64,000 bases of DNA from Macrostomum lignano. Taxonomy: Eukaryota. The position numbers and the translations under genes are program-made. Location of the stretch: NCBI GenBank assembly GCA_002269645.1, contig NIVC01000538.1, positions 310,001 through 374,000 of the forward strand, written 5' to 3'. The notes below the pieces were generated by a model. It was given only the letters and a program-made list of their open reading frames with translations, was not told the origin of the DNA and did not search any database. Of the stretch, positions 1,587 through 63,478 are shown in pieces; position 1 is the stretch's first letter, and each line of letters begins with the position of its first letter.

Positions 1587-2074
1587 CTAATGAGAGGAAC
1601 AAGAGCGGGGGATATCAGGGACAGAGGGAACGGCCGCACTTACCCAGCGCCGGTAGACAGGAAGGGAGACTTTGGACTTGGTCTCCGCCAGCTGGTCCTC
1701 AGTCGCCCCGACGAGCAGCAGGATGAGGCCTCGGTCGGGGGGCAGCATCGCATTGGCCCGGCACAGGTGGTCGTCCAGGCTGCTCTCATCTGACCAGGTA
1801 GAGGCGCCGAGGGCCAGGACGGTCACCCGAACCTTGGCCGCGCGTTCCCATGTGGCCGTGTCCGGGTCACATAGGTCGGGCAGCGGCGAGGACCGGACTT
1901 CGGCCGGCAGGACTTCTTGCACGGCCTCGTGCAGGTCGGGTTGGGCTAGGCAGAAAACTTTGGAGGAAGGATCGTCACGGGGAGGTCGTTTAGCAGCGGT
2001 TTCGACGGAACCTCGGGGGGGGGTGTCCCGAAGGGGTGGGGATGGAAGAGCGGGAGCGCGGGGGGCTCCGTGAC

Positions 2075-2360
2075 CCTGAAGGTTAGATTGACCCGGAGGG
2101 ATCGGCAGGCAGGATCCTTGGGTACCCTGTGGACAAACAGCTCCTGGGTAGCGCCTCGCATGACGAGGGCGCTCCCATGGGGGAGGAGCTGCGAGAAGAC
2201 CAGGGGGGAGTTGGCGCCTTTGGGAGCAACCTCAAAGGTGCGGCGGGCGCCGAAAGAGAAGGAGAGGATGGTGGGGTTGGATCCCAGCTGGGACTCGTTG
2301 TCGGCGTGCCAGCCGCACGAGTGGTTGCCGTGGTCATAGAAGTTGACCAGGCAGGAATTG
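2075..2360 (-). pseudogene. ALKBH2/ALKBH3-type 2OG-Fe(II) dioxygenase catalytic domain (one frameshift near 2205)
   Basis: Reads NSCLVNFYDHGNHSCGWHADNESQLGSNPTILSFSFGARRTFEV / LPHGSALVMRGATQELFVHRVPKDPACRSLRVNLTFR. Matches the ALKBH3 pattern NS..CNLY...DS..WH.D.E..LG..P.I.SLSFGA.R.F ... HG.LL.M.GATQ..W.H.VPK...R.NLTFR. HxD at 2300-2308, distal His at 2129-2131, both Arg retained. Confidence 0.88.
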
Positions 2361-2590
2361 GCATATTGAGTTCCTGCTACAGACCAGAATATGCTCAGGC
2401 CAATGACATATGCACTAAGAATTTGTGATTGAAAGGATAGGCAAGGATTGTTGATTGAGAAAGGGTTTTGGGTTGATGAAAGAAACTTTTTGGCTGATGA
2501 AAGTTCTGATTAATGGCAATTTATTTTTGCCAAAATGAGAAATAGTAACTTTGATTATTCGAAATCAACATTTTGGATAATTATAGTAAG

Positions 2591-8112: not shown

Positions 8113-10365
8113 TCAGCTTCTGCGCAGGTCGGGCTCTTTGTAGTTCCTCTCCGGGTCCTTTGCTTGCCGGGGATGCGGCCGGGCAGCGATCGGCTCCGTG
8201 GGCTCAGGGGGGCCAGGCGGCTGGAGCGGCTGCCCTTCGGACTGCTTAGGCTGCTCGGACAGCCGCTTGACCTGCGTAGCGTGCCTGCGGCAGACGACCT
8301 CGTCGCGCTGCATGAGCAGGGAGTCGCCCTGGACCTCGGCCACGGTCCATGGCACTGGCTCGTAGAAGGCGTCGGTTTTCTGCCGGGATTGCAGACGCCT
8401 CAAGACGCGGTCACCCGGACGGATGGCGTGGTCTGCTGCCCTGGAGCGTTGGTCGGCGAGCCGCTTCATCTCCTCTTTGGCCTGGCGGTCGCGGTCGGCG
8501 ATGGCCGCTCTTGTCGCGTCGATGGGCTGCGAGTGTTGGAGGCTCGGGATCACGTCGTTGATTTGCCTGCCAAATAGCAGACTAGCCGGTGCGACGCCTG
8601 TGGCGCAGTGTGGAGTGCGCCTGTACGCTGCCAGGTATTCGTCCAAGGCCAGCGTCCAGTCCCGACCTTCGAGGACCGCCGCGCGAATAGCCTTGTTCAG
8701 CCCCTGGTTGCACCGCTCCGTTGCGCCGTTGGCCTGAGGGTAGAGAGGCGTGGTTCGATGGTGCCGGGCGCCCTGGTCCGCCAGGAAGCTGCTGAACTCG
8801 GCGGATGCGAAGGGCGGGCCGTTGTCTGTAGTTACCTTCGTCGGCTGCCCGAAGATGCTGAACCACCGGCGCAGCACCTTGGTGACGGCGGAGGCGGTGG
8901 TGCTGGGCATGACCTCCACGAGCGGGAACCTGGAGAAGTGGTCCGTGCAGACGAGCAGCGACTTGCCGCTTACTGGTCCGAGGAAGTCCAGCCCCAGCTC
9001 GAGCCAGGGGCCCTCCGGTAGTTCGGTCGGCTTGAGTGGCGTGGATTTCGGCGCGGTCTCGCGGGTGCAGGCCTGGCAGCTGATGCAGGCTGCCACGTGC
9101 GCTTCTACGGATGCTCGCATGCCGGGCCACCAAACCTTCGGTTGTAGGCGGTCCAGCGTTTTTCTGACGCCCTGGTGGCCCTGGTGGGCCAGCTGCAGGC
9201 ACCGGTACCGCAGAGCCGTCGGCATGTACAGTTGGCTGCGGCACAGCAGCAGGCCGTCCAGCTCGGACAACTCGTGGGCCACGCCGTGCAGTCCCTGTAG
9301 GCTCGTGTCGCTCTTGTCCCACTGGTTCCCGCGGATGGCGTGCAGAGCTGCTTGGACGGTGGAATCTTGGTCGGAGGCGGCCTTGATGATGGTCAGGCTG
9401 ATGGACACCGGGGTGGCCGCCCGCACTGCCGTGGCCACGTAGATCGCATCCGCCTGCTCACCGACGTTGTTCGGCGGCATTGGCAGCGGCTGGCGGCTCA
9501 GGACGTCGGACGGATTGCCGGCTCCGGGTTGATAAACCACTTGGAAGACCAGGTCTTGCAGTCGCAGCGCCATGCGCTCAATGCGGGGCGGCGGCCGCGA
9601 CCCCGGGCTGAACAGGGATACCAGCGGCTTGTGGTCGGTGATCACCTTGAAGTTGCCGCCGCCGCTGAGGTAGTGATGAAACTTCAGGCCACCGTACTTC
9701 ACCGCGAGCGCCTCCCGCTCCGTCTGGGAGTAGCGCTGCTCGGTTGGGCTCAGGCTGCGGCTCGCGTACGCCACCGGCCGCGTCGATCCGTCAGGTTGAA
9801 CTTGGGCGAGGATGGCGCCGACGCCTGTGGGGCTGGCGTCCACGATTAGCTGGGTCGGAAGCTTGATGTTGAAGAATGCCAGCGCCTCGCTGCTGGCGAT
9901 CGTTTGCTTAATGTCCTTGAACGCGGCCTCCTGTTGCTCACCCCATGTCCACTCGGCGGCCTGTCGGGTCAGCTCTCGGAGTGGCCGAGCCCTGTCGGAC
10001 AGGTTGCTGATGAAGCGCGCGACGAAGGTGACGAGGCCGAGGAACGAGCGGACCTCGGTCGCGTTGGTCGGCCGCTTGAAACTGTTGATGGCCGCCACTT
10101 TCTCGGTGCTGGGGTGAATGCCGACTGCCGACAGCCGCATGGCGAGGAAATCGACCTCTCGCTGAGCGAAGCGGCACTTTTTGGGGTTCAGCGTGATGTT
10201 GCTGGCCTTCAGCCGAGCCAGGCAGTCTCGCAGGCGCTGGTTGTGCTCCTCAATGTTCTTCGCATACACCAGGATGTCGTCGTGCACCCAGCGGACGCCG
10301 GGCAGGCCGCTGAGGACGGAGGACATCACCCGCTGGAGGATCTCGGAGGCGGATGTGTAGCCCAT
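8113..10365 (-). CDS. Gypsy pol: RT C-terminal part, RNase H, integrase
   Basis: RWVHDDILVY (RT), IVDASPTGVGAIL and YSQTEREALA (RNase H), HQGH...CISCQAC, LDFLGP, TDNGPPF, NGATER (integrase). Confidence 0.93.
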   Translation of the reverse strand: MGYTSASEILQRVMSSVLSGLPGVRWVHDDILVYAKNIEEHNQRLRDCLARLKASNITLNPKKCRFAQREVDFLAMRLSAVGIHPSTEKVAAINSFKRPTNATEVRSFLGLVTFVARFISNLSDRARPLRELTRQAAEWTWGEQQEAAFKDIKQTIASSEALAFFNIKLPTQLIVDASPTGVGAILAQVQPDGSTRPVAYASRSLSPTEQRYSQTEREALAVKYGGLKFHHYLSGGGNFKVITDHKPLVSLFSPGSRPPPRIERMALRLQDLVFQVVYQPGAGNPSDVLSRQPLPMPPNNVGEQADAIYVATAVRAATPVSISLTIIKAASDQDSTVQAALHAIRGNQWDKSDTSLQGLHGVAHELSELDGLLLCRSQLYMPTALRYRCLQLAHQGHQGVRKTLDRLQPKVWWPGMRASVEAHVAACISCQACTRETAPKSTPLKPTELPEGPWLELGLDFLGPVSGKSLLVCTDHFSRFPLVEVMPSTTASAVTKVLRRWFSIFGQPTKVTTDNGPPFASAEFSSFLADQGARHHRTTPLYPQANGATERCNQGLNKAIRAAVLEGRDWTLALDEYLAAYRRTPHCATGVAPASLLFGRQINDVIPSLQHSQPIDATRAAIADRDRQAKEEMKRLADQRSRAADHAIRPGDRVLRRLQSRQKTDAFYEPVPWTVAEVQGDSLLMQRDEVVCRRHATQVKRLSEQPKQSEGQPLQPPGPPEPTEPIAARPHPRQAKDPERNYKEPDLRRS

Positions 10366-12095
10366 GCAGAGCCGGCGCAGCCGTAGGAGCCCGATGGCGT
10401 GGAGAACGTCAGCAGATCCCTGGACTCCTCGGCGACTTCAATTTGGTGGAACGCTTTGGCGACATCCAGCTCCGAGAAATACGTCGATCCGGCCATTTCG
10501 TCAGTTACCTCTTCGAATGTGGGGATCGGCTGCTTCTCCGGGATGACGTACTTGTTCACCTCGCGGAGGTCCTGGGTGATGCGCACCTCTCCCTGCTCGG
10601 CCTTCGGGACCGCGACCATCCTGGAGCACCAGGCTGTTGGCCCATGCACCCGCTCGATGATTCCCAGGGCAAGCTGCTCTTCCAGCTCTTCGATGACGGC
10701 CGCCCTGAGGTGCACTGGCACTCGGGATGGCGGTTGGCAAACTGGGCTGGCATCTGATCTCAGCTTGATAGTGATGGTGACGCCCTTCACGCATCCAATG
10801 CCCTGAAAGCGGTCGCTGAAGTCGGCCAGAATGCTCTCAAGCTGTAGCTGCTTGGGCAGGTGCTGATCCTCGCATCTCGCTGGTTTGGCCAGGCTGGCCA
10901 CCACCGCCGAGTTCGTGCAGGCCTCTGGGCCGACTCTCAGCATACCGAGCTTCGTGCTGGACGCTCTGCCGAGGATTGGGGTGCAGCTGCTCCGGATGAC
11001 AATGAAGTTCGCCTGCAGCTCGCGGTGGTTCGCCCTGACGGTGAGCGTCGTTTGACCGGCTGCCTCCAGCGGCTCGCTGGCGCCGAGCGCGAAGACTCTG
11101 GTGCTGGACGGCGCAAGTGGCGTGCCGCGGCGGCAAATTCTGCGGAACGTCGCCATGTCCAGTACGTTGCAGCTTGCTCCGCTGTCGATCAGTGTGCAGA
11201 CCTGCTGACCGTTGATGCTGATGGGGAATTTGGCGCTATTGTCCTTGCCGCTGAGCGTGCAGAACACCTCGTTGACTGGCTGGTCTGCAAGCTGGTCTTG
11301 CTCGGGCTGTAGCGCGTTGATCTTCGAGCGGCTGAGGCAGGCCTTGGCCAGGTGGTTGAACTTGCCGCAGTTGGTGCATCGCTTGCCTTGCGCCCTGTTG
11401 CAGCTCCTGTGGCCCGACTCGCCGCATCGGATGCACTTCGCGGATGGCTGCGGCTGGCGCGACAGTTCCGGCGGCGGGTAGCGCTGGCGGCGCACCTGCG
11501 CCACTTCCTCAGAGGCTGCCGCTGTCCTGGACATGATGGCCGCCTGCTTTTCTGCTGCCTCGTGCGTCCTGGCCAGTTGGAGGGTGTCCGCCAGGTTGAT
11601 GTTGGGGATGTTCAGCAGCCGCTTCCTCAGCGACTCGCTGCGGCAGCTGGCCACAATTTGGTCCCTGACGAGCGAATAACGTAGGCTCTCGAACTGGCAG
11701 GCTTCCGAGGCGCTCCAGAGTCTGCTGTGCCAGGCGTCTATCGACTCGCCTTCGTCCTGCACGCACTGGCGGAATTGGTAGCGGAGGAACACAATGTTGT
11801 CGCGACCTTGGAAATGCTTGGTGAACAGAGCGATCAGCTGGTCGACCGTGGGTTCGACTGTAGGTTCGCCTTCTGTTTTGTCGGTCTCTGTTGTTATGAT
11901 TTCGCTATACAGGTCGCTTACTTCTTTGCCTGCCGTGTATAGGAGGATCTGGCGTTTCTGTGTCTCGTTTGTGATGCCCGTGGCCGCCAGGTAGCGTAGA
12001 AGGTTGGATGACCACTCCTGCCAGCGCTTGCTTGTGGAGTGGGGGTCGTCTCTAATGCTAAAGTTACCTGGGGCCGGCAGTTGTAGGAAGGCCAT
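10326..12095 (-). CDS. Gypsy gag-protease-RT N-terminal part (joins pol across a 1-nt frameshift near 10391)
   Basis: Two CCHC-like knuckles (CIRCGESGH.SC; CTNCGKFNHLAKAC), protease LIDSGAS, RT ELDVAKAFHQI. One extra G in tcgggctc would restore SGLLRLRRLCMG. Confidence 0.92.
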   Translation of the reverse strand: MAFLQLPAPGNFSIRDDPHSTSKRWQEWSSNLLRYLAATGITNETQKRQILLYTAGKEVSDLYSEIITTETDKTEGEPTVEPTVDQLIALFTKHFQGRDNIVFLRYQFRQCVQDEGESIDAWHSRLWSASEACQFESLRYSLVRDQIVASCRSESLRKRLLNIPNINLADTLQLARTHEAAEKQAAIMSRTAAASEEVAQVRRQRYPPPELSRQPQPSAKCIRCGESGHRSCNRAQGKRCTNCGKFNHLAKACLSRSKINALQPEQDQLADQPVNEVFCTLSGKDNSAKFPISINGQQVCTLIDSGASCNVLDMATFRRICRRGTPLAPSSTRVFALGASEPLEAAGQTTLTVRANHRELQANFIVIRSSCTPILGRASSTKLGMLRVGPEACTNSAVVASLAKPARCEDQHLPKQLQLESILADFSDRFQGIGCVKGVTITIKLRSDASPVCQPPSRVPVHLRAAVIEELEEQLALGIIERVHGPTAWCSRMVAVPKAEQGEVRITQDLREVNKYVIPEKQPIPTFEEVTDEMAGSTYFSELDVAKAFHQIEVAEESRDLLTFSTPSGSYGCAGSAWATHPPPRSSSG

Positions 12096-12116
12096 GGTTC
12101 AGCCTTGCGACGCCAA

Positions 12117-14996: not shown

Positions 14997-15104
14997 GATC
15001 AGAAGATTGGCCAAATTAATAATTGTAGACTGTTTTCAACACAACTTTAATACCATGCCTCAAATTTGCTATTTCGTCTTCCAAGCTTTCAACCATTTTT
15101 CACA

Positions 15105-16523
15105 CAGGCTCGAGAGCGCAGAAGTCTCCATGGCATGTAAGAGACAAGCTCTCAGTCGACGACGGCATCATTCTATGCGGATGTTGTTGCGTCATACCAC
15201 ATGCAATGAGGAAGCAGATTTTGACGGACTTACACGCAAGTCACCAAGGTCTGTACAAGACAAAGCAGAGAGCAAGGATGGTCGTCTACTGGCCTGACAT
15301 CGATCGGGACATTGAAAATACAGTCAAGCAGTGTCATTCCTGTCGGGAACATCTACCATCGCAGATCAGGGAGCCGATGACAACCCAGGACCAACCGGAT
15401 CGATGTTTTCAACACATACATGCAGATTTTTGCGAGCATGCCGGCAAGAAGTTCCTTGTGCTCGTGGATGCATACTCAGGCTGGTCAGCGTTCTGTCATT
15501 TCGGTGATCGAGCACCCACGTACAAGCTGATAAACGCTTGCCGCGAATTCTTTTGCCAAACAGCTGTACCGGAGAAATTCTGTGCTGACTGTGGGCCACA
15601 ATTTAAAGCACAGCCGTTCGTTAATTTTTTACGTCGCTGGGGTGTGAACATCAGATACTCATCGTCATCTCCGTATTACCATCAAAGCAATGGAAGAGCA
15701 GAAGCTGCCGTGAAAAGTATAAAGAAGATCGTTCGAGGAGCATGGGACAGTCGCTTGAATGACTTGGACAAAGACAAGATGGCTCAGGGTTTGCTGCAGC
15801 TGCGAAACATGCCCATGTACGATGGCAGAATTCCATCTGTAATGGTCTATGGACACACAGTCAGAGACACGCTGCCCGCGCATAGGAAAAGTTTTGCAAA
15901 GGAATGGAAGGACAAGGTCTGGAAAATGGAGGAAAAAGCTGCAGAAATTCACGCTAAAGTTCATCAACACTACAATGCCTCGAAGCGACAACTGGAACCT
16001 CTCCGAGTCGGCAGTCACGTTGTTCTTCAAAACCCTGTCACAAAGCTTTGGGACAAGAAGGGCGTCGTAGTAGAAGTTGGTCGGCACCAGGACTACATGG
16101 TCAAGTTAGTAAGCGGCCGAATTTTCCGTCGCAATCGCGTGTACATCCGCCGATGTCTACCACAGTAACAGCTCTCTACTACAGGTGCATCTCGGAAGCA
16201 AGGTGAAGCACAAGACGCCCCGGACAAGCCAAAGACCGCACAGCCAAGGCGAAGTCAACGGTCGAACAAGGGAGTCCCGGCACCCAAGTTGCATTACAGG
16301 AAGTTGGGTGAACCAGTTAACGCTTAAAAGGGGAGATGAGGAAGAAAGAACTGTAAAACTGTTTTGCTTAAAAGGGGAGATGTTGTGTGCGTATGCGAAT
16401 TATTCGTCTATGTGCGAAACCATCTGCCCCCGTTTATATGTCGACCCCAAACAAGCGACCAAATATATTAACTCATTCTCGGCCTAGCACCGATTACTGT
16501 GGCTTAATGCCAAGAACATAACA
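15105..16523 (+). mobile_element. 5'-truncated Ty3/gypsy remnant: integrase, PPT and short 3' LTR (16381-16523)
   Basis: PPT ttaaaaggggaga directly before TGTTGTG...CATAACA; integrase ORF upstream. Confidence 0.8.
15206..16168 (+). CDS. Gypsy integrase (remnant)
   Basis: LHASHQG...CHSC zinc motif, HIHADF, ADCGPQF, SNGRAEAAVK, RRNR tail. Confidence 0.88.
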   Translation: MRKQILTDLHASHQGLYKTKQRARMVVYWPDIDRDIENTVKQCHSCREHLPSQIREPMTTQDQPDRCFQHIHADFCEHAGKKFLVLVDAYSGWSAFCHFGDRAPTYKLINACREFFCQTAVPEKFCADCGPQFKAQPFVNFLRRWGVNIRYSSSSPYYHQSNGRAEAAVKSIKKIVRGAWDSRLNDLDKDKMAQGLLQLRNMPMYDGRIPSVMVYGHTVRDTLPAHRKSFAKEWKDKVWKMEEKAAEIHAKVHQHYNASKRQLEPLRVGSHVVLQNPVTKLWDKKGVVVEVGRHQDYMVKLVSGRIFRRNRVYIRRCLPQ

Positions 16524-16596
16524 GTTATAACGAAACTTAAAAATGTAAACGAAAGCAAAAGTAAAATAAGCGTAATAAGTGATTCAGTTTCTACAG

Positions 16597-17307
16597 AATT
16601 TGTATCCCATGAACTCCGTTAAAATCATGCGCTACAACTTGCCTACGGCAAACGAGGTCGGTATCCTGATCGTTGAGGACAATGAGGACGCACCGGCCAG
16701 TCGGGACGTCGTGATTCAGCTGCGTGGTGGCAGTTCCCAGCGAATCAGCGAGACACACCGCTCATATGACCCGCTGGAGTATGTGCTGCTGTTCCCGAAT
16801 GGCGAAGATGGCTGGCACCCGGAGTTGCGGATGAGTAATGGCAAGAAATTGACGCCCATGAAGTACTATGCAAGCGAAATCATGGTGCGAGCGGGCCAGT
16901 TCAGTTTGCTGCACTATGGCCGAAGATTATTTCAACAGTACCTGGTGGACATGTGTGCCAAGATTGAGGCAGAGAGGTTGCTGTATTTTTGGACCCATCA
17001 GCAGGACCTGCGCAGCGAGACATACAGCGGTCTGCGGGACGCTCTGTTTGCAGCTGATGGCAGGTCTACCGACAGAGATCCGAGTGACATAGGCAAGCCC
17101 GCGCATGTGCTTCTGTCTTCGAGCTTTGTTGGCGGGCAAAGGTACCTGATGGAGAGGCTTCAGGACGCTATGACCTATGTACACAAGTTTGGTAAGCCGG
17201 ACCTGTTTGTCACGGCAACATGCAATCCGAATTGGCCGGAGATTAGCGCTCAGCTGCTGCCTGGACAGCGGGCTGAACACCGGCTGGACATTGTTAGCCG
17301 AGTCTTT
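16597..17307 (+). pseudogene. Helitron Rep (Helitron_like_N) domain fragment
   Basis: RYNLPTANEV, SYDPLEYVLLFPNGEDGWH, RLFQQYLVDM, LSSSFVGGQRY, GKPDLFVTATCNPNWPEI, RLDIVSRVF; cut off at ~17307 by LTR sequence. Acceptor-like ttctacag at 16596. Confidence 0.92.
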
Positions 17308-18050
17308 GGGTCTCGGCCTAATGGCCGCTGGACGGGTCAAGGTTCGGGCCCTCCCCGCCTGAGACACCCCGGTCCCAGCCCTCACCCCGGCTATTCCTAC
17401 CCTGTCTCGCTCGGTTCGGCGAGAGTTCGCCTGACCGAACACCCTTGGGATCGGCGAGAGTTCACCGTTCCCAGGTCCCTGCAGATCCCGGCCCCATGCG
17501 GCAACCCAGAAGAACGAAAGCTCGAGCTCACCTCTCCAGTCAGATACTTGGAATTTAACGAAGTATTTATTGGCCGAGAGCAGATAGTTTGATCGAACAA
17601 ATCGCAAGCGATCACAACAGTTAAGCGAACGAACTAGCAGAATGCAGACGAACGAGCAAAGTGCAGATGAACAACGAGCGGACACCAATAGAGAAAAACG
17701 TGGAGCGCAGCCCGCTCAGGGCTAGCATTTAAATAATACACAAAAAGGGGGGAGGGGTGGGGCAGACTGGAGAGGGCGAGTCAAACCCTGGGGCCCAGCC
17801 GGCTTATCAACCAGCCAGCCAATACGAGCAGCCCCAGGGTGAGGCGGGCAACGAGGGAGGGGGGGTAGTGTCGGCACCCAGATTGGACAGAGGTTGGGCC
17901 GGGGGCTGGGTGCAAAGGGCTAGGTCAGGGTTGAGACTTACGCCTCTCACAAACCCTGGCCCGGGCGCGAGACGGGGGAGGGGGCGGGATGGCAAGCAAA
18001 ATTGATACACAAGTACGAGTACATACGCACTGGAAGGGCGCAGCCCAACA
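17308..18050 (-). repeat. 3' LTR of the cargo-bearing gypsy element (left boundary uncertain)
   Basis: PPT followed by TG start on minus; GC-rich LTR-like composition similar in style to 2591-3434 and 30655-31327. Confidence 0.65.
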
Positions 18051-18410
18051 TCCTCCCCCTCCAAGAAAAGAAGAGGAGAAAAGGGATGTCAAGCAGCAAC
18101 AAAAAATTGGAAAACAAAAAGCAACGCATGACAAGCAAGTCTGACAAAACTGAGAGGCCAATTCGAACAAAATAGCAAAAACGGGGTTTGGGCCATAGAC
18201 GAAAAAAAACCCATCACCATTTCTATTGGGCCATGCGATCACGGCAGCGTAAGCAATTCACGACATGTTAATTCAAAAAACGACGGCCGAAAAATAACTG
18301 AAAAACTTTGACGCGACGCGTGGATATCGCCGGCATTACAAAAAAAAACAAAAACGAAAAAATAAAACGGGGACACAAACTATTGCGTACGCAAAAATTG
18401 AAAACGGGCT

Positions 18411-20099
18411 TTAAGAACGAACTTCTACAATCGGCCAAAAAAATCGACTACAATTGGTCGCAAACAGTCGAGTCCAGTACCCGCGATCACATTCACTGTC
18501 CGCTAGGGCTTCCGGCACGAACTTGATGGCTGTCGGGTCCTTGGGGTCTCCACCAAACGGTGCGACCGATGTCACTAGCAGGCGCTGCCGCGGGAGACGC
18601 TTAGCCCGTTGGACCGCTCGCGGGGATCCTCGGCACCGAGCGGACACCTCGAAGAAGACCCCGTGGCACTCGCTCACCAGCGCGGCCTCGACGGCCTCCG
18701 GCAAATCCAGGTCCTCGGCCAGCATGACGCTCATCGCTTTAAACTCCGGCTGCCGGAGGAATCCTAGGGCGACCGCCCAGGCAGGTTCGCCGCCTTCAAC
18801 TCGGAACAAAACCGGCAGGCCGAACTCCTTGGCAAGCAAGAACTGCTCCATTGCCGCCGTTAACTGGTCCTGGCGCTGCGACCTCTCAGCGTTCCAATTG
18901 AGCTCGACTTCGCCGACTGCCACGACACGCGGCCAGCTACCCGCTAGAAATCGTCGTACATCGTCTCGCAGCGATGGCCACCGCGGTGCAGCACTGGCCT
19001 TCAGGCCCAGGGCGAACACGATCCGTCGGTCTTGCAGCAGTGGTCGGACAACGGGACATTCTAGACGCAGACAGTACGGCGAGTTTACAGCCGCTAGACA
19101 TCGACGCACGCCACGAAGGTCCTCGGGCTGAATTGACCGGCCCAGCCTCGTTAGGTATGTCTTTGCATCGACGAGACGCTTAGCCGAGCTGACCTTGCGC
19201 TGGTTCGGGTCGTCACGGGGGCAGACCTCCTGGACCGTGTCGGCCGGTCGTACTTGCTCGGAGTCGACACCCGTTAACTCTTCGGTCGCCAAGTCGCGCT
19301 GGGCCGTCAGCTGAGTTTGAGAAAGGTGCGGCCCGTCACTCTCCTCCGGGCGCCGCGCGAGGCCAGGATCCACTAAGAGAGACAGACCCCGGAGCCTCCC
19401 CAACAAGGGACCCCCCAACTCACACAGCTCAAAACCCCGCACAGCCAACAACACGCACTCAAACGCCGCCTGCAGCACCGAAGGCGGGACCCTCCGACAC
19501 TTCCTGGAACCACCACCAGAACCTCTCTTCCGCCCATACTGATTACACAGAAACGATACAGACACGGCTAAGAACCTAGACAACTGCTCAGGCACACCCA
19601 CACCAGCCCCATCAAGAAACCTCGCCACCTCCTGAACCACTAGGCAAGCTCCATCACTATCTCCAGCCCTCAACCGCGCCAACAGCGCACCTCTCAGCCG
19701 CCTACACTCGGCAACCCCAGCCGGAGTCAATAACTCGGCTGGGATCTCCGCGCGAACTGGAGCTTCCCCTGCGGCGCTTCCCTTAAGACTAGCCAAAGCT
19801 AACCTGACCTGCTCGGGCAACTCAACGTCAGGGGGAGGATTGAAAAAGTACGCGTACTTTAACAACCCTTGACACGCTGCCTCTCCACCCCGATCGTACA
19901 CTTCCCGAAATACTGGGTCAGATAAAACGCACATCGCCATCACGTCCCGCTGAGACTCCGGAGATTCTACCTCGGCAGGACAGACGCGGGGCCGCTTTGA
20001 GTACAGACGACTACACGCTGCCTCAATTTCCGCAGAGTTAGCAGTCCGACCCACGCCTAATACGCCATACAAATCAGTCGGTGTTCCTGGCGACGACAT
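18411..20099 (-). CDS. 562-aa extra ORF: degenerate J-domain (N-term) plus degenerate TatD-like amidohydrolase fold (C-term)
   Basis: First ATG at 20099 (track start 20135 is GTG). N-term DLYGVLGVGRTANSAEIEAACSRL...LSDPVFREVYDRGG fits DnaJ helices but HPD reads RPR. C-term RLVDAKTYL, IVFALGL, RVVAVGEVELNW, LAKEFGLPVLFR, LPRQRLLVTSVAPF, PTAIKFVPEALA, TNCSRFF follows TatD block order. Confidence 0.8.
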   Translation of the reverse strand: MSSPGTPTDLYGVLGVGRTANSAEIEAACSRLYSKRPRVCPAEVESPESQRDVMAMCVLSDPVFREVYDRGGEAACQGLLKYAYFFNPPPDVELPEQVRLALASLKGSAAGEAPVRAEIPAELLTPAGVAECRRLRGALLARLRAGDSDGACLVVQEVARFLDGAGVGVPEQLSRFLAVSVSFLCNQYGRKRGSGGGSRKCRRVPPSVLQAAFECVLLAVRGFELCELGGPLLGRLRGLSLLVDPGLARRPEESDGPHLSQTQLTAQRDLATEELTGVDSEQVRPADTVQEVCPRDDPNQRKVSSAKRLVDAKTYLTRLGRSIQPEDLRGVRRCLAAVNSPYCLRLECPVVRPLLQDRRIVFALGLKASAAPRWPSLRDDVRRFLAGSWPRVVAVGEVELNWNAERSQRQDQLTAAMEQFLLAKEFGLPVLFRVEGGEPAWAVALGFLRQPEFKAMSVMLAEDLDLPEAVEAALVSECHGVFFEVSARCRGSPRAVQRAKRLPRQRLLVTSVAPFGGDPKDPTAIKFVPEALADSECDRGYWTRLFATNCSRFFWPIVEVRS

Positions 20100-20406
20100 A
20101 GTCCTCTTGCAATGATGACATTTAAACCCAATCACTACCTATGTCTTGCGGACTAGCAACCGTGACCCTTGCCTGATCCATCTCATAGCATGTTAATTTT
20201 TCAATACGATTGAGAACGCTTCTTGCCTAGTATATTTTGTAATTTTAATACATTTAATGTTTTTATGTGCTTTTCATGTATCCCATTTTATTATTTTTTG
20301 TGCTTTTGTCTTTGTGTTTTTTTAATTTACTTTATTTCCGGCTTTCTACCATGGACAGCATATTAAAAATCAATTTTGGACAACCACCTTGCGAGCCCAT
20401 TGCGAA

Positions 20407-21888
20407 TTAACGATACAGCACCGGATTCCCGTAATACGCTGGGGGCACACCCCGACGCTCGCGCAGTCTGCGCGGAGACACAGCTGGCGCCGCTGGAGCC
20501 ACCGGCGCGCATGGCGCAACTGGCGTTCCCGGCCCTACTACCCCATGCCGAGGCCCAACGGCAACTGGTGGCACAACATACGAGTAAAACTCTTCCTCCT
20601 CCTCAAGTTCCGGCTCTGTAGTCTCCGGCCCCGCGGGCTCCTGTCTGCACCCTGCCGGTTCAGGCGGATGCGCCGACCGGCGCTGCCCTGCCGTATGCCT
20701 ATTCATCAACCTGAACTGCTCAGGCCGCTCGGGAACTTTTCGCAAATTATTATAATGCACTATTTTGCTCTTTCCCTTATTGGCGTGCTTTATCCGGTAA
20801 TTTAAATCGGATATCTTCTCTATTACCCTTGCCGGCCCCTTCCAATTGCAATGGAACTTGGCTGCCTCCCCGGCCTGCAGTGCAGGTGAGTATTCTAGGA
20901 CGGCATCCCCAACTTCTATGGTCGGACCCCGCACCCTCGAGTCGTACAGCACTTTCTGTTTCCTCTGGTACTGCTGCAGGTTGGTCCGCACCTGCGAATG
21001 AGCCTCAGCCAGACTATTACCTAATGATTGAACATACGCCGGAGCACTGGCAGGAATGGACTCAGGCAAGGTTCCGATGTCCACTGGAAGCCGCATCTCC
21101 CTGGCGTACAGCATGTAGTACGGGGTGTACCCCGTGCCCCTGTGGACACTGCTACGGTACGCCATGAGAGACGGGTGGATCAGATCCTCCCAGTCTCCCT
21201 CGCCAACCGACTCACTCATCCGGCACTTTATCATCGACTTCAATGTCTTATTGAAACTCTCGGCCTGACCATCAGCCATCGGGTGATAGGAAGACGTTCT
21301 GCATTTCTTGACTGCAAGCAGCTGACACAACTGCTTCATCAAAGCCGACTCAAAATTGGTGCCCTTATCGGTGACTAGGAATTCAGGACAACCAAAGTGC
21401 GTAATCCAGTGATCAAAAATCGCTCGCGCCACCGTCGGGGCTCGCTGATTGGACAAGGGCACAGCCACCGGCCACTTAGTAAAAGAATCCTGGATTGTCA
21501 GCACGAATCGATTGCCACCTCTGGACTTGGGCAGCGGCCCGACAATGTCACTCATGATTCTCTAGAAAGCTCCTTCTGAGCAGATTGGCTGCAGAGGCGC
21601 CCGGTTGCCGCGCCCAGGCTTCGCCTTCGCGCAGTGGACACAGCTCCGGCAATACTCTTCCACGGAACGATTCAGTCCTGGCCACCAGTATCTCGCCTTC
21701 ACCTTCTCTTGTGTCTTCCCAACCCCAAGGTGCCCTCCTGCAACCCCATCATGAAGCTCACTGAGCACTTTTGGCAGCAAAGCTGGCGGCAGCAAGATCT
21801 TTTTCGGGCACCCACGCCCGGGACTCTGAAAATACAACAGATCAGACTCTACTCTTATCAGCTGCCGTTGTGCCCACAGCACACGCAC
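20407..21888 (-). pseudogene. Gypsy integrase (frameshift near 21560)
   Basis: LHDGVAGGHLG...CRSCVHC; DIVGPLPKS; TDKGTNFES; YHPMADGQAESFN; GPY/F-like tail. Confidence 0.9.
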
Positions 21889-23909
21889 GCTCCTCCCACG
21901 ACATCACTCTAGGCGCATTGGGACTCGAACCCGGGTCCAGGGCATAGGAGCGGACAGCTACAAGCTTCTTCTCGGCCACTTGCGCCTGCTGGACTTCCTT
22001 CAGGGACAGCTCACTGCCAAACACCGCGTTCACTACTGGCACATTCTCGCTGAACTGGCAGCTGGGGCAGCTCTCATGGCCAGCGTGTTTTCGGTACTTG
22101 CGAGACAGCGAATCAGCGTTGCCGTGCTCCTTGCCTGGCCTGTGAATGATCTTAAAGTCGAAGTTCTGGAGCGACTCAAGCCACCGTGCGCACTGACCCT
22201 CTACGTCCTTCAGACTGGCTAGCCACTGCAAAGCTTTGTGGTCTGAACGAACAGTGAACTTTCTACCTAACAAATAGTACCTATATTTTTTGACGAAGTG
22301 CACGACGGCAAGCAGCTCTAACCTGGTGGTGCAATAATTTTTCTCCGCCGCATGAATCATCCTAGACCCGTAAGCGATCACCTTCTCACGGCCATCTGCC
22401 TGACGCTGTGACAGGACGGCTCCCAGCCCGACGCGCGAACTGGCGTCCGTGTCGAGGATGAACTCCCCGGCACCAGGCGAAAAATCCGGGAATGTCATCA
22501 CATTCGGTGAGCACAAAGCGTCCTTCAGCCTGCGGAACGAGCTCTCCTCCTCAGTACCCCACTCAAACTTCACTCCGTCTGCGGTTAACCTATACAGCGG
22601 CGCAGCAATCTCCGAAAACTGCGGGATAAATGACTGATAGTAGGCGCACGTACCCAGGAATGCCTGCACCTTCTTGGCACTACAAGGTCTCGGCCAATTC
22701 TGGATCTCCTCGCACTTGCTCGGGTCCGTCGCGATCCCCTCCCGAGGAACGATATGGCCCAGAAACTTTACCCGCTCTGCGAGGAACACACACTTGGCGG
22801 GCTTCATCTTGACATTGGCATCCCGCAGGCACCGGAAAACGTGTTCCAATCGCTCGAGATGCTGACCCACCGACTTGGCGAACACGACTATATCGTCAAA
22901 GTACACCAGGCACTCCTTCCAGTTAACCTCAGACAGGGCCATAGACATTAGCCTGGCGAACGTGGCGGGAGCATTGCGCAAGCCAAAACTCATGCACTTC
23001 CAAGCGAACTGACCCCTGTTGGGCACCACGAACGCCGTTTTCAACTGGTCCTTCGGCTCAATCGGGCACTGATGATAGCCGGAGGCCAAGTCCATCGTCG
23101 AGAAAACACAGTTCCCACCTAGCGCATCAAGCGTCTCGTCCATCCGCGGCAGTGGGTAAGGATCTGGCACTGTGACCTCGTTAAGGCGCCGATAGTCCAG
23201 ACACAACCTCAAGCTACCGTCGGCCTTTTTAACCGGCACGATCGGGCTCGCCCACGGAGAGTAGCAGGGATAGATGCGATCCTGCTGCAACAACTCATCA
23301 ACCTGCTTATCAATCTCCTCCTTCCAGTGCGGTGGAATCCTACGCGCGGGCTGACTTACTGGCTTGGCATTGTCGGTGTCAATCTCATGCGCCATCAAGT
23401 GTGACTGTCCCAACTCCGAGCTATCCCTGGCAAAGACATCACGATTCCGAGCCATAAGGAGCTCAAACTCGTGCTTCTCATCGCCCGTCAGGCCACATCC
23501 TCCCCACTCCTTGACGTCGCTGAGGGGGTTCCAATCGTCTCGGACACTCTCCACCGAGTTCACCTGCCACCCAGCTGGCTGCTGGGCCGCCACTGGAGAA
23601 AACCAACCAATTCGGCTTCCCTTCCTTAATGACAGACTGCGTCCTGACGTGTTCAACACCCTAACAGCCAAGCGACCGTCCCGATCAGGCATCTGTACCG
23701 ATCTGGCCACCATCTGCTCGTTACTCACTTTCCTCTCAGACTCCGCTATTCCTAGAAACTGAACCCCAGAGGGATTCCTTCTCTGCAACCTAACGTGGAC
23801 AACCTTCTCCTGACCTGCATTGAACTGCTCAGGCTGACTCAGCACCAGACGGCAAAGACGCGGCTTATCTGCTGACAAGCGAAACGGATGCACGCAGGAT
23901 GCAGTCTGC
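21842..23909 (-). CDS. Gypsy RT and RNase H (3' part of chimeric ORF 21842..24733)
   Basis: SPWASPIV, LRLCLDYRRLN, MDLASGYHQ, LVYFDDIVV, LDTDASS, TRLELLAVV, HGNADSLSR. Confidence 0.92.
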
Positions 23910-26900
23910 ACCTCCAGGACTCGAGCCAGAGGCCAGTGACCCCGAGGGCTGTCCGGACAGACATACAGCACGACGTCCCCGGGCTTGAGGTCGGGCTGCT
24001 CTCGCCGCCATTTGGTTCTCGCACCGAGGCCGGGCAGCCACTCTCGGAGCCATCGTCGCCAAAACGACTGCACCAGCTGCTGCACGTATCGCCACCGCTT
24101 GGTTGGGTTGAACACCTCGTCAGCCGAGATCTCCGGTGCCAGCTGTCCGCCAACGTGCCCGTACAGGAAGTGTGCTGGCGTCAGGACCGGATCGTCACCA
24201 GGATGGGACGACTGGTAGGTCAAAGGCCGTGAGTTCAGCAGCGACTCTGCTCCGGCAAATGCTGTTACAAGCTGCTCATCGCTGACTTCTGCCGATCTCA
24301 GGATCGCGTTTATCGCTCTCTTTGCTGATTTTATCATTGACTCATGCACGCCGCCGAAGTGCGGAGCCGCAGGCGGATTAAAGTGCCACTTGATCGGTCC
24401 GTGAGATGTGCGTGACTGCAATGCGTTCTTGTCCATCGACTTGCACAGCTCCTTTAGTTCTCTATCCGCACCAACAAAATTAGTTCCATTGTCTGAGAAG
24501 ATTTTCAGAACTTGACCTCGGCGACTGATCATGCGAAACAACGCGTTTAGAAAGCTGCTTGCATCAAGGCCGTACGCCATTTCTAAATGAACTGCACGCG
24601 TTGCCATACAAGTGAAGAGCGCAAGGTACCGCCCCCGACCCTGTTTCGTCAGGAATGGACCTCCGAAATCTATTGATACTTTCGTAAATGCTCTCAACGG
24701 TTCTAGCCGACTGGGAGGCAGTGGTGCCATCAACTGCGAAGCTGGCTGTGCCTTTCTTCTCCTGCACTCAGCACACTTGACTTCCCAAGCTCAGATGGCC
24801 TCTCGGGCAGCTGGGATCCAAAATCGAGCAGTGACTGCAGCAAGTACTTGATTGGTGCCCGCGTGATACGCTTTTTCGTGATGGTGCTTGATTATCAATT
24901 CTGTCACGTGATGGCACTTTGGCAAGATGATTGGTGATCTGATACTAACCGGCAATGCTTCGGCCAACTGTAGACGGCTCTCTGAGCGAAGAACGCCGCT
25001 AGGATCGAGTCTGGGATGCATTCTAGCCAGCTTGCTGCTCTCAGAAACGCTCTTGTTCTTCCTCAAGGCGGAAAGCTCCGTGCTGAATGCATCTTGCTGC
25101 ACATCCTTGATGATTCTTAACTCCGTGTCTTCCAGCTCCGACGCCTGCAGCTCTCCTCGAGTTCGGTACTGTGGTTCGAAGCGACAATTGTTGGCAAATC
25201 TGCTAATCCAGGCATTTACCCTCAGGAATTTCATCCAGCTGGAGAACCTGCTCGGATCGAGCCGCTCTACTTGATGCTTTCTTTGCTCGCTGGTGACCAT
25301 TGTTGCACACATGACCGCTTCGGACGGGACTGAATCTTTCGCCGAACCTTTCGTCTCCAGGTCTGCTGGTCGCTCCAACCTGGTACTTGGCCACTTGTAG
25401 TCGTCGTGATGTAAAAACTCTGGACCGTTTTTCCATTTCTGATCCTCGGCCAGCTGAGTTATCGTTGCGCCTCTTGACAGCAGATCAGCAGGATTGCACG
25501 CCGTTGGCACGTGTCTCCACTGGTTCGGATCAGTTGTCTGCTGGATTTCTCCGATGCGATTCGCAACGAACGGTTTAAAGAAGCGTCCTCTTCCACGAAT
25601 CCAAAACAGAACGTTCATGCTGTCCGACCAGAATACCGCATCCTTGATGTTCATCTCTAGTGCCTTGGCAATCTTGACCGCTAGATTCAGCCCAATGACC
25701 GCTGCCATCAGCTCCAGCCTCGGAATGATCATAGTTGCTATGGGTGCAACTCGAGACTTAGCAGCGATGAGCCGAACGGATATCGAGGCGTCGGTGTACT
25801 TGCATCGTAGATAACACACTGCTCTGTAGGCCTTCTCCGAAGCATCGACAAAGCAGTGAAGCTGAGACTTCGTAGGTACGCAAGAGAACTGCAGACAGCG
25901 ATAAACTCGAAAGCAGTTCAGCTTCGTCAGGTCAGCACACCATGCTTGAATCCTCCTTTGCAGAGCCTCGTCCGGCGCTTCATCCCAATCAAGGCCGCTG
26001 CACCAGAGCTCCTGCAGTAGTATCTTTGCCTGTGCAGTGAAAGGTGCTATCAGTCCGAGAGGATCGTACACTGAAGCCAATCTCTTTAGCAGATCCTCTT
26101 TGACTTGACTGGTCTCAGCTCGCTATCAGCAACAAAGGTGAATTCATCGTCCTCACTTTTCCAGACTACTCCAAGCGTCTTCGAAACTGGCAACGGCTGA
26201 CCATCCAGGCTCACCTCCGCGACTCTATCCTCTGGTGCTACACACGCAAGCAGTGCTCTTGAGTTTGAAATCCACTTCCTAGCGTGCATGCCAGCTCGCT
26301 CCCACAATTGGCTCAGCTCCTGATACAACTGAATAGCCTCTGAATCAGTCTTCTTCGAATCCAGGCAGTCATCCATGTAAGTTGACTGGAGCACCGTTTC
26401 TGCGGCCGCTGGAAACTCCTGCTTCAGCTTCTTCGCGTGCTCCTGAGTCACGAATTGCGCCAGAAATGGTGAGCTCGTTGCTCCAAAAACCACTCGGTTG
26501 AACTCGAATGTCTGTGGTACCTTTTTCGGATCCATGTCCCGCCACAGAAAGCTGTGCGCTGCCCGATCTTATGGTGCGATCGCGATTTGCAAGTACATTT
26601 CAGAAATGTCGCAAGCAACCGCCACTGGATGCCTCCTGGAGCGCAGGAGCACATCAACCAGATCTTTCTGAAGCTTCGGTCCTGCCAGCATCAGGCTATT
26701 CAACGACTCCTCCCCGCCAGCTGAAGCATCAAAGACGATGCGCACCTTGGTAGTTGCCTTATCCATCCAAACCACTGGGAAATGAGGGAGGTGATACCTG
26801 TTCGCTGGTTGTTGCTCATGCTTCAGTACTCTTCTGATGTAGCCAACATTTTCGTAGCGACTGATGACGTCCTGATACTGCTTTGCTAGATCTGGATCTT

Positions 26901-29316
26901 TGCGGAGCCTCTTCTCGGTATTTGCAAGCCGCCTGATAGCCATTTCAAAGTTGCTATCTTTAAACGTGACATCCGGTTTCCACGGAATGCCAACTTGGTA
27001 TCGCCCATCGACGAACTTTAGCGATGATCGAGTTCTTTCCAAAGCGAGCTGCTCTGCATTAGTAAATGAAGATGGTTCGATGCTTCTCACCTCTTCTACT
27101 TCCCAAAACTGGCGTAACAGTGGCGCTAGATTCTCAGACCCGCCTCGGCTGAAGAACGTGTTTGCGAACAACGCGTGCTCCGAAGCTCCATCCACTCTAC
27201 CGATACAAGTCCAACCTAAAGGTGTCAGCCGCGCTTGCGGATCTCCTGGGTTGCCGGTCACTTCCAACTGTGATGCATGCAAGTCTGGATGATCGACTCC
27301 AATCAGCAAGTCTGGTGTTGTTTTCCGCTGGTGTTTGCATTCTTGGAAACGGAATGTTTGCCAAGTGCGACCATTTCGACGCCAATTTTTTCCAATCTAC
27401 TACTTCCATATTCCCGGTCACTCTATCTACCGTCAGCGCAGTAATCTCCTTGCTTATTTGGCCGTCAGTACTCTCCAAGGTGCATGACACTGGTGCTGTT
27501 ATGAAGGTTTCCACCTGTCCGTTCAACACGTTTACCTGCATTGATTCCTGTTTGCCGTGCAGGCCAAACTTGGATGCTATCGCCGTATTCAAATAGGTCT
27601 TTGTGCTGGCGTCATCAAGTAAGGCATTGACCTTCACCGCTCGCCTATTCGCCTTAAGAATGACCGGAACCGTTCGAAGTGAAACCGCACTGGCTTCTCT
27701 AGCGACCATTGTCACGGTTGCAGCTTTCGGCTTCGACTGCATTTCTTGCTCAGCACCGGCTTTGACTTCTGACTTCTATTTCGATTCCGACCTTGCTGTC
27801 GAATGCAGCAGACGATGGTGGGATTTGGTGCATCCATCCACGCCGCACTTTCGACCTCGTCGGCAGTTCATACCGGTGTGACCATGGCCAAGACAGCGGA
27901 AACAAGCTTTGGCCTCCTGAGCAGCCTTCCATCGATTCTCAGATGACAGCTTCGCGAACGCCGGACACTTCCATAAACCGTGAGCCTCCTTGCAGACGAC
28001 ACAGGAGTAGCTCTCCTTGCTTGAGCTCTTGCTTAGCTGCGCTACATGGAAGGCTTTCTGCTTGCTGTCCTTTCTTGGTTGCTCCTGACTCGATGCGGCC
28101 ACCCCGTACACAATTTCTGCTGCCTCAGTCCGGAACTCTGCCTCACGCAAAACCCACTCTCGAAGGGTCCTAACGCCTTCTGTCTTCGCCTTCTCGAAGA
28201 TCCATCGACGAAATGCAGCGACCATCGGCTCTGGTAACTTTTTTTGCAATCTAGCATAAAGCAGTCCATCACTAAGTTCGGAGTTCTTACCAGCTTCTTC
28301 CAAATTAATTACAGCCACATTGAGGATGTTTACGAATTTCTTCAGCTCCTCGGCACTATTCTGCTTCACGGGTGGAAAACTATCTAGCTCCTCCAAGTAG
28401 TGCGCCAACTGTCGTCGCTTGCCGCCGTACTCACGCTCCAATCTCTCCTTGGCCGCCTGGTAGGCAGCAGCCGAATGACCCAAGTGCTCTATTACCTTCA
28501 GCGCTGATCCACGCAAGTACTGACGCAACTGCAGCAGTTTGAACTCTGGTGTTGCTGGAGCCCTGTCGATGCAAGCCATGAACGCTGCCTTCCACGCCTC
28601 GTACTGCTGTTTTTCCCCGTAGAAGGTAGGAATTTCAACTCGACGCAACATCTTCCAAAGGTCTTTTGACAGTTCGTGTTCCGTAGAACTCGCACCTTGA
28701 CTGCCGGCAGTTCCTCCCGCTAAGCTAGCTTGTTCTGCCTCGGGTCTACTGGCATGGTTCGGAGCAAACTCGTCGCTAAACTCACCATAGCCACCAATTT
28801 CCAAGTGTGGCTGTTGCTGCTGTTGTTGTGACTGGGCCTGCCTCGGATCTTCTGAGGTCTCGGGTGCGAGCCGCCGCTCCCAGGTCGCGGCTGCCACCTG
28901 AGGCACTTGCGCCGTTGCAGATGGTGACTGCTGAGTTGCTAGGAAACGCTGGACCTCTCGCATGCTGACGCGGTAGTCCTCCTCGACGGTTTCTATTTCA
29001 TCGAGCAGCCGAGAGTGCTGTGCTGCGTCGCTGTTCTTTCGTTGCAACTCGTCGCTCAACTCGTACAGCGCCTCGATTGTTCCCTCGAAGATCTAGGTTA
29101 CGACTTCGCATTGGTGCTGAATTTCGCTCTTGTCAGAACCATCTTGTAGTAGCCTGGCCAGTTTGTTTCGATTTTTTGTCAGCGCAGACTTAAACTTGGT
29201 CTTTTGTCGTCGCAAATCCCGCTTCTCTGGCTGTTCAGCCGATTTCGAATGTGTCTCCTCATCTCCTTGCATTCTGCTATGTTTGGCTAGCGTGGACAGA
29301 TCTCAACTTTAGTGAC

Positions 29317-29612: not shown

Positions 29613-30273
29613 CGAGACAGTGGCAGCTCCAGAACACGGAGGCTAAGTCCATCGTAGAGAAAACGTTTTTCCCGCCTAACGCATCTATAGTCTCATCCAT
29701 TTTCAGCGGCGAGTATGGGTCCGGCACTGTCACCTAGTTCTATTGCATCAGCACTCCCTCCACCATGCGAGCCGGCATTCGGACGCCCTTCAAGAACCGT
29801 TCCTTTGCAAGCTCATCGCGCTGCACAACTGGCAATACGCCTTCCTCATCAGTTTTCTCATCGAGTCTGCATACTCCTCCATCGCCTCTCCCACTTTCTG
29901 ATTTCGGCCTTGGAACTCGAGCTAGTAGTCTTGAGCGGTTCTATTCTGACTGAAACGCGCTTCAAGCTGCTCCAAGAAGTCTTCACACTCCAACTCGTCA
30001 TCCAACTACAAGTTCGCCACCGCTTTGAAGGCTGTTCCGAAACGTAACAGGCTAATCAAAGTCTGCTTTCGCTGATCCCCAGGAGCCTGCGCTGCCTCGC
30101 AACACACTGTGAATTGTTGCAGCCACATAGTGAAGTCTTAAGACGGTACGTACTTGTTGGGCCGCGGGACCCGCTGGGCTACATTCAACTGAATCTGGAG
30201 ACGAGCCGTCAGGGTATCGATTAGGTTGTCGACATTGGCCATGACTTGCGATAGCTTTTTTAACAACACAAAA

Positions 30274-38250: not shown

Positions 38251-38587
38251 CACGCGAGAGATACGAAAAACGTATAGGAGACTCCTGAAAACATAGGAGG
38301 ACAAGGGTCCCAGTGATAATAAATTTTGCTATTTTGGCATCACAGACAACTTATTCCAAGGAATATGACCCCCATTTTCACTAGGGGACAGCTGACTTAT
38401 GTGGTCAAGATGTTGTCTAAAATTCAGGGCCTATTGTGTCAGTTTTCTGGATAAATATGCCCTCCGACTTCTAAAATTTATTAATCTATTTTATCGTGGT
38501 TTGTTTGCACAGTGCTACTATAAGTAGAACGAAAATTTTGATAATTACCGTCCAATCAATCCGCAGCACCTACAGCCAGTAGCCGCT

Positions 38588-39001
38588 ATGCTCGGCCGAA
38601 TCGCTTCCGCTAGACGCCTCATGGCTGGCGCCGCTAGCGCCCGCGTGCGCGCCTTCTCGGCTCCGGCCGCCGCTTCCGCGGCTGCCAGCAACAAAATCGA
38701 AGTATTTGTCGACGGCAACCCGGTCCAGTGCGACCCCGGCATGACTGTGCTGCAGGCCTGCGCTCTGGCCGGCGTCGAAATTCCCCGATTCTGCTATCAC
38801 GAGCGCCTGTCTATCGCTGGCAACTGCCGCATGTGCCTGGTGGAGGTTGAGAAATCCATCAAGCCGGTGGCCAGCTGCGCTATGCCAGTGATGAAGGGCA
38901 TGCGGGTCAAGACTGACTCGCCGATGACGCGGAAAGCTCGCGAAGGCGTTATGGAATTTCTGCTGGTTAATCATCCGCTGGATTGTCCAATCTGCGATCA
39001 G
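38588..39001 (+). CDS. NDUFS1: NDUFS1 exon 1
   Basis: [10 protein letters not shown]...[10 protein letters not shown], then GT donor. Confidence 0.96.
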
Positions 39002-50560: not shown

Positions 50561-50939
50561 CTCCAATATTCCCATTTGTCCGTATGGCTGTCTCTTCTAT
50601 CATTCTTCAGCGACTCTGCGTGTGTGGAAATTTCCAGTCTCAATGCCGCCTTCTGCCTGCTTATTTTGAATTATATTATCGCTACTCCTGCAGCGCCAGT
50701 GCATCCCCATCTGCCAACAAGATTTGTCATTTCACTTTTCGAAAAGCTTCTCTGTCAGTTTAGTTCACAAGCCCTCAGTTGAGTCAGAGGCACTTCTAGA
50801 TTTTAAATTAGCAATCCATTTATTTGCAGACAGCAGTGATTAGTTAATAAATTTGACTTTACTCCTTTCCCTTGTTGTTGTTGCAGACTGTCTGCTTTCG
50901 CGAACTAATCGCCCGCCCTCCATTAGCCGGAACGCCATC

Positions 50940-63478
<12,539 letters not shown>

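Follow-up and report, generated by a model that had tools for sequence, protein, structure and literature searches.

A J-domain third gene in a flatworm gypsy clade, possibly encoding an adaptor against host silencing

The window analyzed here is a 64,000-nucleotide stretch of the flatworm Macrostomum lignano (contig NIVC01000538.1, positions 310,001 to 374,000), and it contains a gypsy long terminal repeat (LTR) retrotransposon with a third open reading frame (ORF3) behind its integrase. ORF3 is element-borne, multi-copy, modular, and selected. It is the conserved third gene of a flatworm gypsy clade, and judging from sequence its product would quite possibly act as a nuclear adaptor that weakens host silencing, a reading that we hold tentatively. 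An original prediction, made from the letters of the window alone, had described a 562-codon frame, open and in the pol orientation, that lies between the end of the integrase (20407) and the polypurine tract (PPT) and LTR (18050), as a retrotransposon accessory gene. Both the frame and its assignment are borne out, as ORF3 stands behind the integrase in the multi-copy family of the window copy (family A) and in related families.

Related families and selection

ORF3 is located after the integrase in at least eight related families; an iterated search found it there in B/B', C, D (17 loci), E, G, H (about 22 rows), and I (18 rows), with four to six loci fetched for each of G, H, and I. Family F is known from fragments, and in six broken fragments (C543, C2146, C853, C27, C460, and C1726) pol is absent from the fetched stretch. 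The families that share this position have reverse transcriptases (RTs) that are 55-65% identical. In a tree of RT-RNase H (midpoint root, long outgroup branches, the too-short G_C864 excluded), the families with an intact ORF3 group together (99/100), separate from four other gypsy RTs. Every family has the same core of J domain, linker, and helical domain; the linker is acidic in all but A. A degenerate TatD domain (pseudo-TatD) is present in A, B, and C and absent from D, E, G, H, and I, and its bearers A, B, B', and C form a clade (100/100) nested in the ORF3 clade. The simplest reading would be a single gain of TatD, followed by loss of the HPD motif of the J domain in A.

A profile search of 1.84 billion proteins gave five further relatives: three with J and helical domains, one with a chromodomain between the two, and one pseudo-TatD piece. 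At least one of these shares only 43% identity with the sequence that it matches best in the M. lignano assembly, so the ORF3 gene likely extends beyond this assembly. Three copies (C2475, C222, and C150) have an internal deletion that removes the J half of ORF3. C2475 is also a recombinant, C-like from gag to RT and B'-like from integrase to ORF3, with LTRs that are 99.6% identical. Some family-H copies (L197-L200) have a single long open frame that runs from gag into the start of pol; in A, D, and E the two frames are shifted.

By own-genome search, the family-A ORF lies on 22 contigs (a lower bound), and 10 copies are fully open. Ten sister loci fetched whole are elements of about 8.6 kb in the order LTR, primer-binding site (PBS), gag, pol (in a shifted frame), ORF3, PPT, and LTR. 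In eight of the ten the LTR pairs are 99.2-99.9% identical; the 3' LTR is interrupted or cut in C1936 and C647. These near-identical pairs, together with 4-bp target duplications that differ among the eight loci, indicate independent young insertions. The PBSs are tRNA-Lys/His-like. At a guess, these PBSs and the clade list in PMC12801592 would place the elements in the Gmr1/Osvaldo clade. The assembly is redundant, according to passages of the same source (PMC12801592), and locus counts therefore exceed the true number of insertions.

Selection was measured as pairwise Nei-Gojobori dN/dS. The comparison across copies that had been proposed gave ORF3 values not near 1 in family A, namely 0.29, 0.33, and 0.32 among the window, C254, and C647 copies (p 2e-5, 5e-5, and 6e-6; the pairs share branches). 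Constraint is tighter on pol, at 0.13-0.14 in the same copies. Between C647 and the window, dN/dS is 0.15 for the J domain (p 5e-3), 0.77 for the linker, 0.24 for the helical domain, 0.18 for the second linker, and 0.39 for TatD (p 0.04). Elsewhere it is 0.26-0.28 for B against B', about 0.1 at a dS of about 2 for B against C, 0-0.37 in family I, 0.12-0.28 in G, and also below 1 in E; copies of D and H are too alike for a verdict. ORF3 is under purifying selection.

The original prediction had also found it suggestive that ORF3 is open beside a pol with at least two frameshifts. The window pol in fact has a single frameshift (near 21885) and a single in-frame stop (21562-21564). Across 16 young copies, excluding the heavily damaged C1760, there are 12 frameshifts per 8,632 ORF3 codons vs. 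21 per 17,996 pol codons, rates so alike that an open ORF3 beside a broken pol is uninformative. Nearly all are single-base deletions, and many are likely assembly errors. ORF3 is covered wholly or nearly so, without gaps, by contigs from three public studies; as the RNA nature of these runs is a guess, the coverage confirms the sequence and says nothing about its expression. UniRef gene models labelled Macrostomum lignano contain the identical ORF3 sequence.

Domains of ORF3 and the window locus

The features of the window copy and its surroundings are as follows.

18411..20099, minus strand: ORF3 of gypsy family A, 562 aa, an uninterrupted frame
19881..20078, minus strand: J-like domain (about residues 8-73), with RPR in place of HPD at 19986-19994
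19365..19727, minus strand: five-helix domain with a basic Gly/Arg loop, common to all ORF3 families, without known homologue
18414..19184, minus strand: TatD-type barrel, most metal ligands lost
20106..20112, minus strand: predicted splice-acceptor-like site upstream of the ORF3 ATG
20100..20406, minus strand: A-rich spacer from the integrase stop to ORF3
20407..23910, minus strand: gypsy pol (RT, RNase H, integrase), 5'-truncated
18051..18062, minus strand: polypurine tract
17297..18050, minus strand: 3' LTR with an approximate far end; it contains AATAAA and, at about 17526-17531, a donor-like GTGAG
23911..29092, minus strand: BEL/Pao element, context outside the ORF3 system

An AlphaFold (AF2) model of ORF3 built from 12 sequences (mean predicted local distance difference test, pLDDT, 67.7) has three folded parts with disordered linkers between them. 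The predicted two-fold architecture of J and TatD had thus overlooked a third domain (about residues 125-245), which is the constant helical part. On the window ORF3 Pfam finds DnaJ at 9-69 (E 2.6e-3) and TatD at 357-525 (E 1.6e-4), both below the curated cut-offs, and a family-B relative passes these cut-offs for both. Word-based search with the window ORF3 returned no homologues, and ESM Atlas gave no usable match. The conclusion that the protein is not env-like holds, as its highest 19-residue hydropathy is 1.49, which gives no transmembrane segment, and Pfam lists no env family match; by hydropathy, such a segment is absent from all 14 ORF3 proteins (14/14).

The N-terminal J pattern was correctly seen. 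RPR of the window aligns with HPD, with the proline retained, and the J fold is supported by Pfam and by the AF2 model, but the HPD of a functional J protein is missing. HPDK is present in 11 of 12 aligned ORF3 proteins, family A being the exception, and HPD is intact in B, C, D, E, G, H, and I. Every family-A copy read at its start has RPR, apart from one that is frameshifted and one that is old. RPD stands in degraded B' copies and HLD in a fragment of F. The best PDB match of the ORF3 profile is the J domain of human DNAJB1 (E 3.6e-19). In helix II, ahead of the HPD position, family A has two Lys/Arg residues vs. three to six elsewhere, and the family-A protein likely binds Hsp70 poorly, to judge from the loss of both HPD and these basic residues. 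A word-based search with a family-D ORF3 returned one ordinary DnaJ only. The assembly also contains a host DnaJB-type gene in one open frame (L210:7558-8760, contig C839), with overlapping canonical heat-shock elements (HSEs) just upstream; a gene of this kind is a plausible donor type for the ORF3 J domain.

The C-terminal fold is likewise supported. TatD structures rank first in a Foldseek search with the window AF2 model (best E 4e-7), every one of the 15 rows listed at E<=2e-4 belongs to the TatD type, including an entry titled amidohydrolase and another titled metalloprotein, with TM-scores to target of 0.51-0.74, and the TatD sequence profile matches YcfH (E 1e-7). The block losses read earlier (DSHCH to DAKTY, PVIVH to PVLFR, and ETDSP to VTSVAP, with GE kept) agree with the YcfH alignment. 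Of the six usual metal-ligand positions, A retains one (Glu) and B/C retain two (the first His and Glu). Family A therefore retains the GE glutamate alone from the His/Glu/Asp ligands of a TatD DNase, and its fold is likely an inactive nuclease. As to where the TatD part came from, the exons of host TatD genes give only weak scores with the ORF3 profile, and bacterial YcfH outranks human TATDN in PDB. The prediction of two disabled host folds accordingly stands for the family-A branch and fails as a general picture, since HPDK is kept elsewhere and TatD is absent from five families.

The helical domain comprises 120 residues with five confidently predicted helices (pLDDT 89). Foldseek gave 0 matches at E<=1e-3 in PDB and BFVD, and a word-based homologue search with its profile returned M. 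lignano records only. Helical-repeat leads from ESM Atlas were generic and of low recognition and were not accepted. Other modules vary among families. The chromodomain of family I (Pfam E 1.4e-12) has Swi6 and HP1 as its best PDB matches; the fold-level match is strong, but the three-residue aromatic cage of HP1-type chromodomains is incomplete, with Tyr and Trp kept and Val in third place. Motifs like the SUMO-interacting motif (SIM), with a hydrophobic core and a Ser/acid run as in the general SIM consensus, occur in 5 of 10 linkers vs. 0.96 expected from shuffles (P 7e-4), a value made optimistic by a pattern written post hoc and by the shared ancestry of the families. Family-I ORF3 (C245, C1863, C2245, C652, and C328; L201-L205) consists of a J domain with HPD, an acidic linker, the HP1-like chromodomain, and the helical domain; it is annotated by NCBI as a hypothetical M. 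lignano protein and is probably the best experimental entry point.

The window pol has the Pfam order RT, RNase H, and integrase. The copy has no 5' LTR or PBS; the BEL/Pao element occupies the place expected for gag, protease, and 5' LTR, with the junction at 23910. About 117 nt between ORF3 and the PPT (18150-18266) are missing in other family-A copies. Upstream of BEL/Pao lies a Gag remnant (29743-30242, minus strand), 69% identical to family-A Gag, which may be the displaced 5' part of the window copy or a sister family. A second, distant gypsy (8113-12098, minus strand; RT about 33% identical), an integrase fragment (15029-16168, plus strand), and a Helitron helicase-like frame (16579-17592, plus strand) form a nested transposon cluster. 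Host-like exons encode an AlkB-type 2OG-Fe(II) oxygenase (1946-2509, minus strand), an NDUFS1-like NADH dehydrogenase (38528-45886, plus strand), and a DENN-domain gene (50844-51533, plus strand), with long tandem repeats between them.

Predicted expression and possible function

A donor-like GT(A/G)AG site lies in the 3' half of every LTR examined, the partial 3' LTR of C441 excepted. Each ORF3 start with an ATG has an acceptor-like YAG, which adjoins the ATG in G, H, and I and lies within 16 nt in A, D, and E; in a background of 896 ATGs, YAG adjoins 3% and lies within 19 nt of 44%. Families B and C have no nearby ATG in the J frame, and the acceptor is followed there by TG. In seven of the eight B-, B'-, and C-type LTRs listed, a GTAAG donor is preceded by A (C441 has none), so that splicing would create a start codon. 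Together, LTR donors and ORF3 acceptors predict an env-like spliced subgenomic RNA. No joint of donor to ORF3 was listed in four contig sets from runs that are guessed to be RNA, a result that does not demonstrate its absence, and no processed (spliced) genomic copy is among the fetched loci. The acceptor-like site ahead of the window ATG is present, as had been noted, but altered, whereas C254 and C647 have a canonical YAG; with no 5' LTR either, the window copy is likely not the expressed one. Heat-shock activation, as described for HSE-bearing M. lignano LTR elements in parts of PMC12801592, was considered and rejected because the LTRs have no HSE. No canonical HSE occurs in 21 LTRs of families A-E, and in the fetched G, H, and I stretches matches to the pattern lie only inside pol of H.

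J proteins bind a client with one end and load Hsp70 with the other. The constant core of J and helical domains, with HPD intact, is therefore read as a targeting co-chaperone, and because the modules that can be named point to silenced chromatin, an anti-silencing adaptor is favored. ORF3 would be made from a spliced subgenomic RNA, from the LTR donor to the acceptor at its start. The protein could then dock at SUMO- or H3K9me-marked chromatin through a SIM-like motif or an HP1-type chromodomain, and its helical domain may grip a host silencing factor or element nucleic acid. The HPD-bearing J domain would load Hsp70 and loosen the silencing complex, allowing the LTR to be transcribed. In piRNA silencing, SetDB1 is recruited by SUMO-SIM contacts (10.1101/533091, in part), and in plants J proteins either promote or counteract silencing, with one group doing so independently of HPD (sections of 10.64898/2026.09.14.751395). 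Family A has lost HPD, the acidic linker, and the SIM-like motif, and its J, helical, and TatD folds are kept under selection. It would act independently of Hsp70, with the ligand-less TatD barrel as a non-cutting module that binds nucleic acid or protein; for the window protein, the role of pseudo-TatD is a guess.

Several points weigh against such an adaptor. The window family has neither SIM nor chromodomain, so the link to chromatin is borrowed from its relatives, where the SIM pattern is post hoc and the chromodomain cage has two of three aromatics. Neither sequence searches (Pfam, PDB) nor fold searches (PDB, BFVD) gave the helical domain a convincing match. A broken or deleted ORF3 has not kept some relatives from multiplying, which makes the gene dispensable in cis, and the same modules fit integration targeting or self-repression. 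A bolder version of the adaptor, possible but more doubtful, is that the clade encodes its own Hsp70-recruiting anti-silencing factor, targeted by swappable readers to SUMO- or H3K9me-marked chromatin and expressed by env-like splicing. It would then be to a transposon what the J domain of the T antigen is to polyomavirus, in an arms race with silencing of the piRNA type, and the pseudo-TatD branch would have solved the same problem without Hsp70.

It is rather unlikely that ORF3 instead helps replication or integration, by tethering the pre-integration complex to chromatin or by bringing Hsp70 to the particle or the integrase-DNA complex. In the first case it would be a free-standing version of the chromovirus integrase chromodomain; in the second, Hsp70 would assemble or dismantle the particle or complex. 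Viral J domains, such as that of the polyomavirus T antigen, recruit Hsc70, which we count in its favor along with the family-I chromodomain. In the C2475 recombinant, ORF3 travels with the integrase while gag-RT comes from another lineage, but this is one event for which adjacency alone suffices, and the SIM-like motifs point to host complexes.

A decoy, in which the J and TatD folds, both disabled, would absorb or block the partners of host chaperones or nucleases (e.g., in chaperone-dependent small-RNA loading), is improbable. Family A has lost both motifs with both folds under selection (J 0.15, TatD 0.39), but HPD is intact in the other families, and five of them (D, E, G, H, and I) have no TatD. 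The loss of helix-II basic residues from family A, which likely cannot hold Hsp70, also counts against an Hsp70 sink, so the chaperone decoy originally proposed does not serve as a general picture. No more probable is a self-limiting or competitor repressor, in which SIM or chromodomain and J would recruit silencing to the element or its rivals, as with plant SILENZIO. J proteins also promote silencing (10.64898/2026.09.14.751395, in part) and the same modules fit, but ORF3 is carried by young families that exist in many copies (17-22 loci in each of A, D, H, and I). That ORF3 is a neutral captured host mRNA, an assembly artefact, or a host gene is very improbable: family-A ORF3 is less constrained than pol, many copies are broken, and six fragments have no pol in the fetched stretch, but dN/dS is well below 1 at all depths, the position is the same across families with RTs 55-65% identical, and contigs from three public studies span ORF3 gap-free.

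Comparison with known systems

To our knowledge, element-encoded counter-defence is well known in viruses and plant transposons and scarce in animal retrotransposons. The clade contributes a helical domain unmatched in the databases searched. Among the M. lignano entries that UniRef and NCBI label "J domain-containing", some turn out to be transposon ORF3s or chimeric gene models. ORF3 cargo is already known as a kind; a J-domain ORF3 with swappable chromatin-type modules is new among the literature searched, in which no description of this type was found, and an earlier mention is possible, for instance in the 2020 M. lignano LTR classification (10.18699/Letters2020-6-12), Repbase, or GyDB. 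Keyword searches did not find it in the main text and five supplements of PMC12801592, whose main text, as searched, has no mention of DnaJ, TatD, or ORF and whose tables offered no tie to the ORF3 families, nor in the keyword passages of the DARTS paper. Working transgenesis and LTR reporters exist for M. lignano (PMC12801592, in part), and the natural variants (HPD kept or lost; chromodomain, SIM-like motif, or pseudo-TatD) make the question directly testable in the transgenic worm.

According to passages of PMC5408684, LTR retrotransposons of bdelloids carry non-env ORF3 cargo, namely a DEDDy exonuclease and a GDSL esterase. The likeness lies in an enzyme-derived third ORF after pol, without a transmembrane segment, in gypsy-like elements of a small aquatic invertebrate. 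The bdelloid ORF3s sequenced had mostly neutral intragenomic variation (PMC5408684, in part), whereas the cargo here is a J-domain co-chaperone with a novel helical core, swappable modules, and clear purifying selection. In Arabidopsis, DNAJ1-3/SDJ with SUVH1/3, SILENZIO, and PKL-JDPs combine a J domain with a chromatin reader that tunes silencing, one group being HPD-free (10.64898/2026.09.14.751395, in part); these are host genes, ORF3 is element-borne, and the homology shown is that of the J domain.

Class B J proteins (DNAJB1/Sis1) are the best PDB matches of the ORF3 profile, and most families share their HPDK, but ORF3 is element-encoded and has no DnaJ C-terminal domain, and family A has no HPD. 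TatD DNases (YcfH, YjjV, and TATDN1/3) resemble ORF3 in sequence profile and predicted fold and differ in their metal ligands, which ORF3 has mostly lost. Chromoviruses encode a chromodomain, plant VANC is an element-encoded anti-silencer, and the polyomavirus T antigen is a virus-encoded J domain that dismantles a host repressor. The chromovirus chromodomain is on the integrase, whereas that of ORF3 is in a separate ORF. VANC and T antigen are likened to ORF3 by description, and T antigen also by its J fold.
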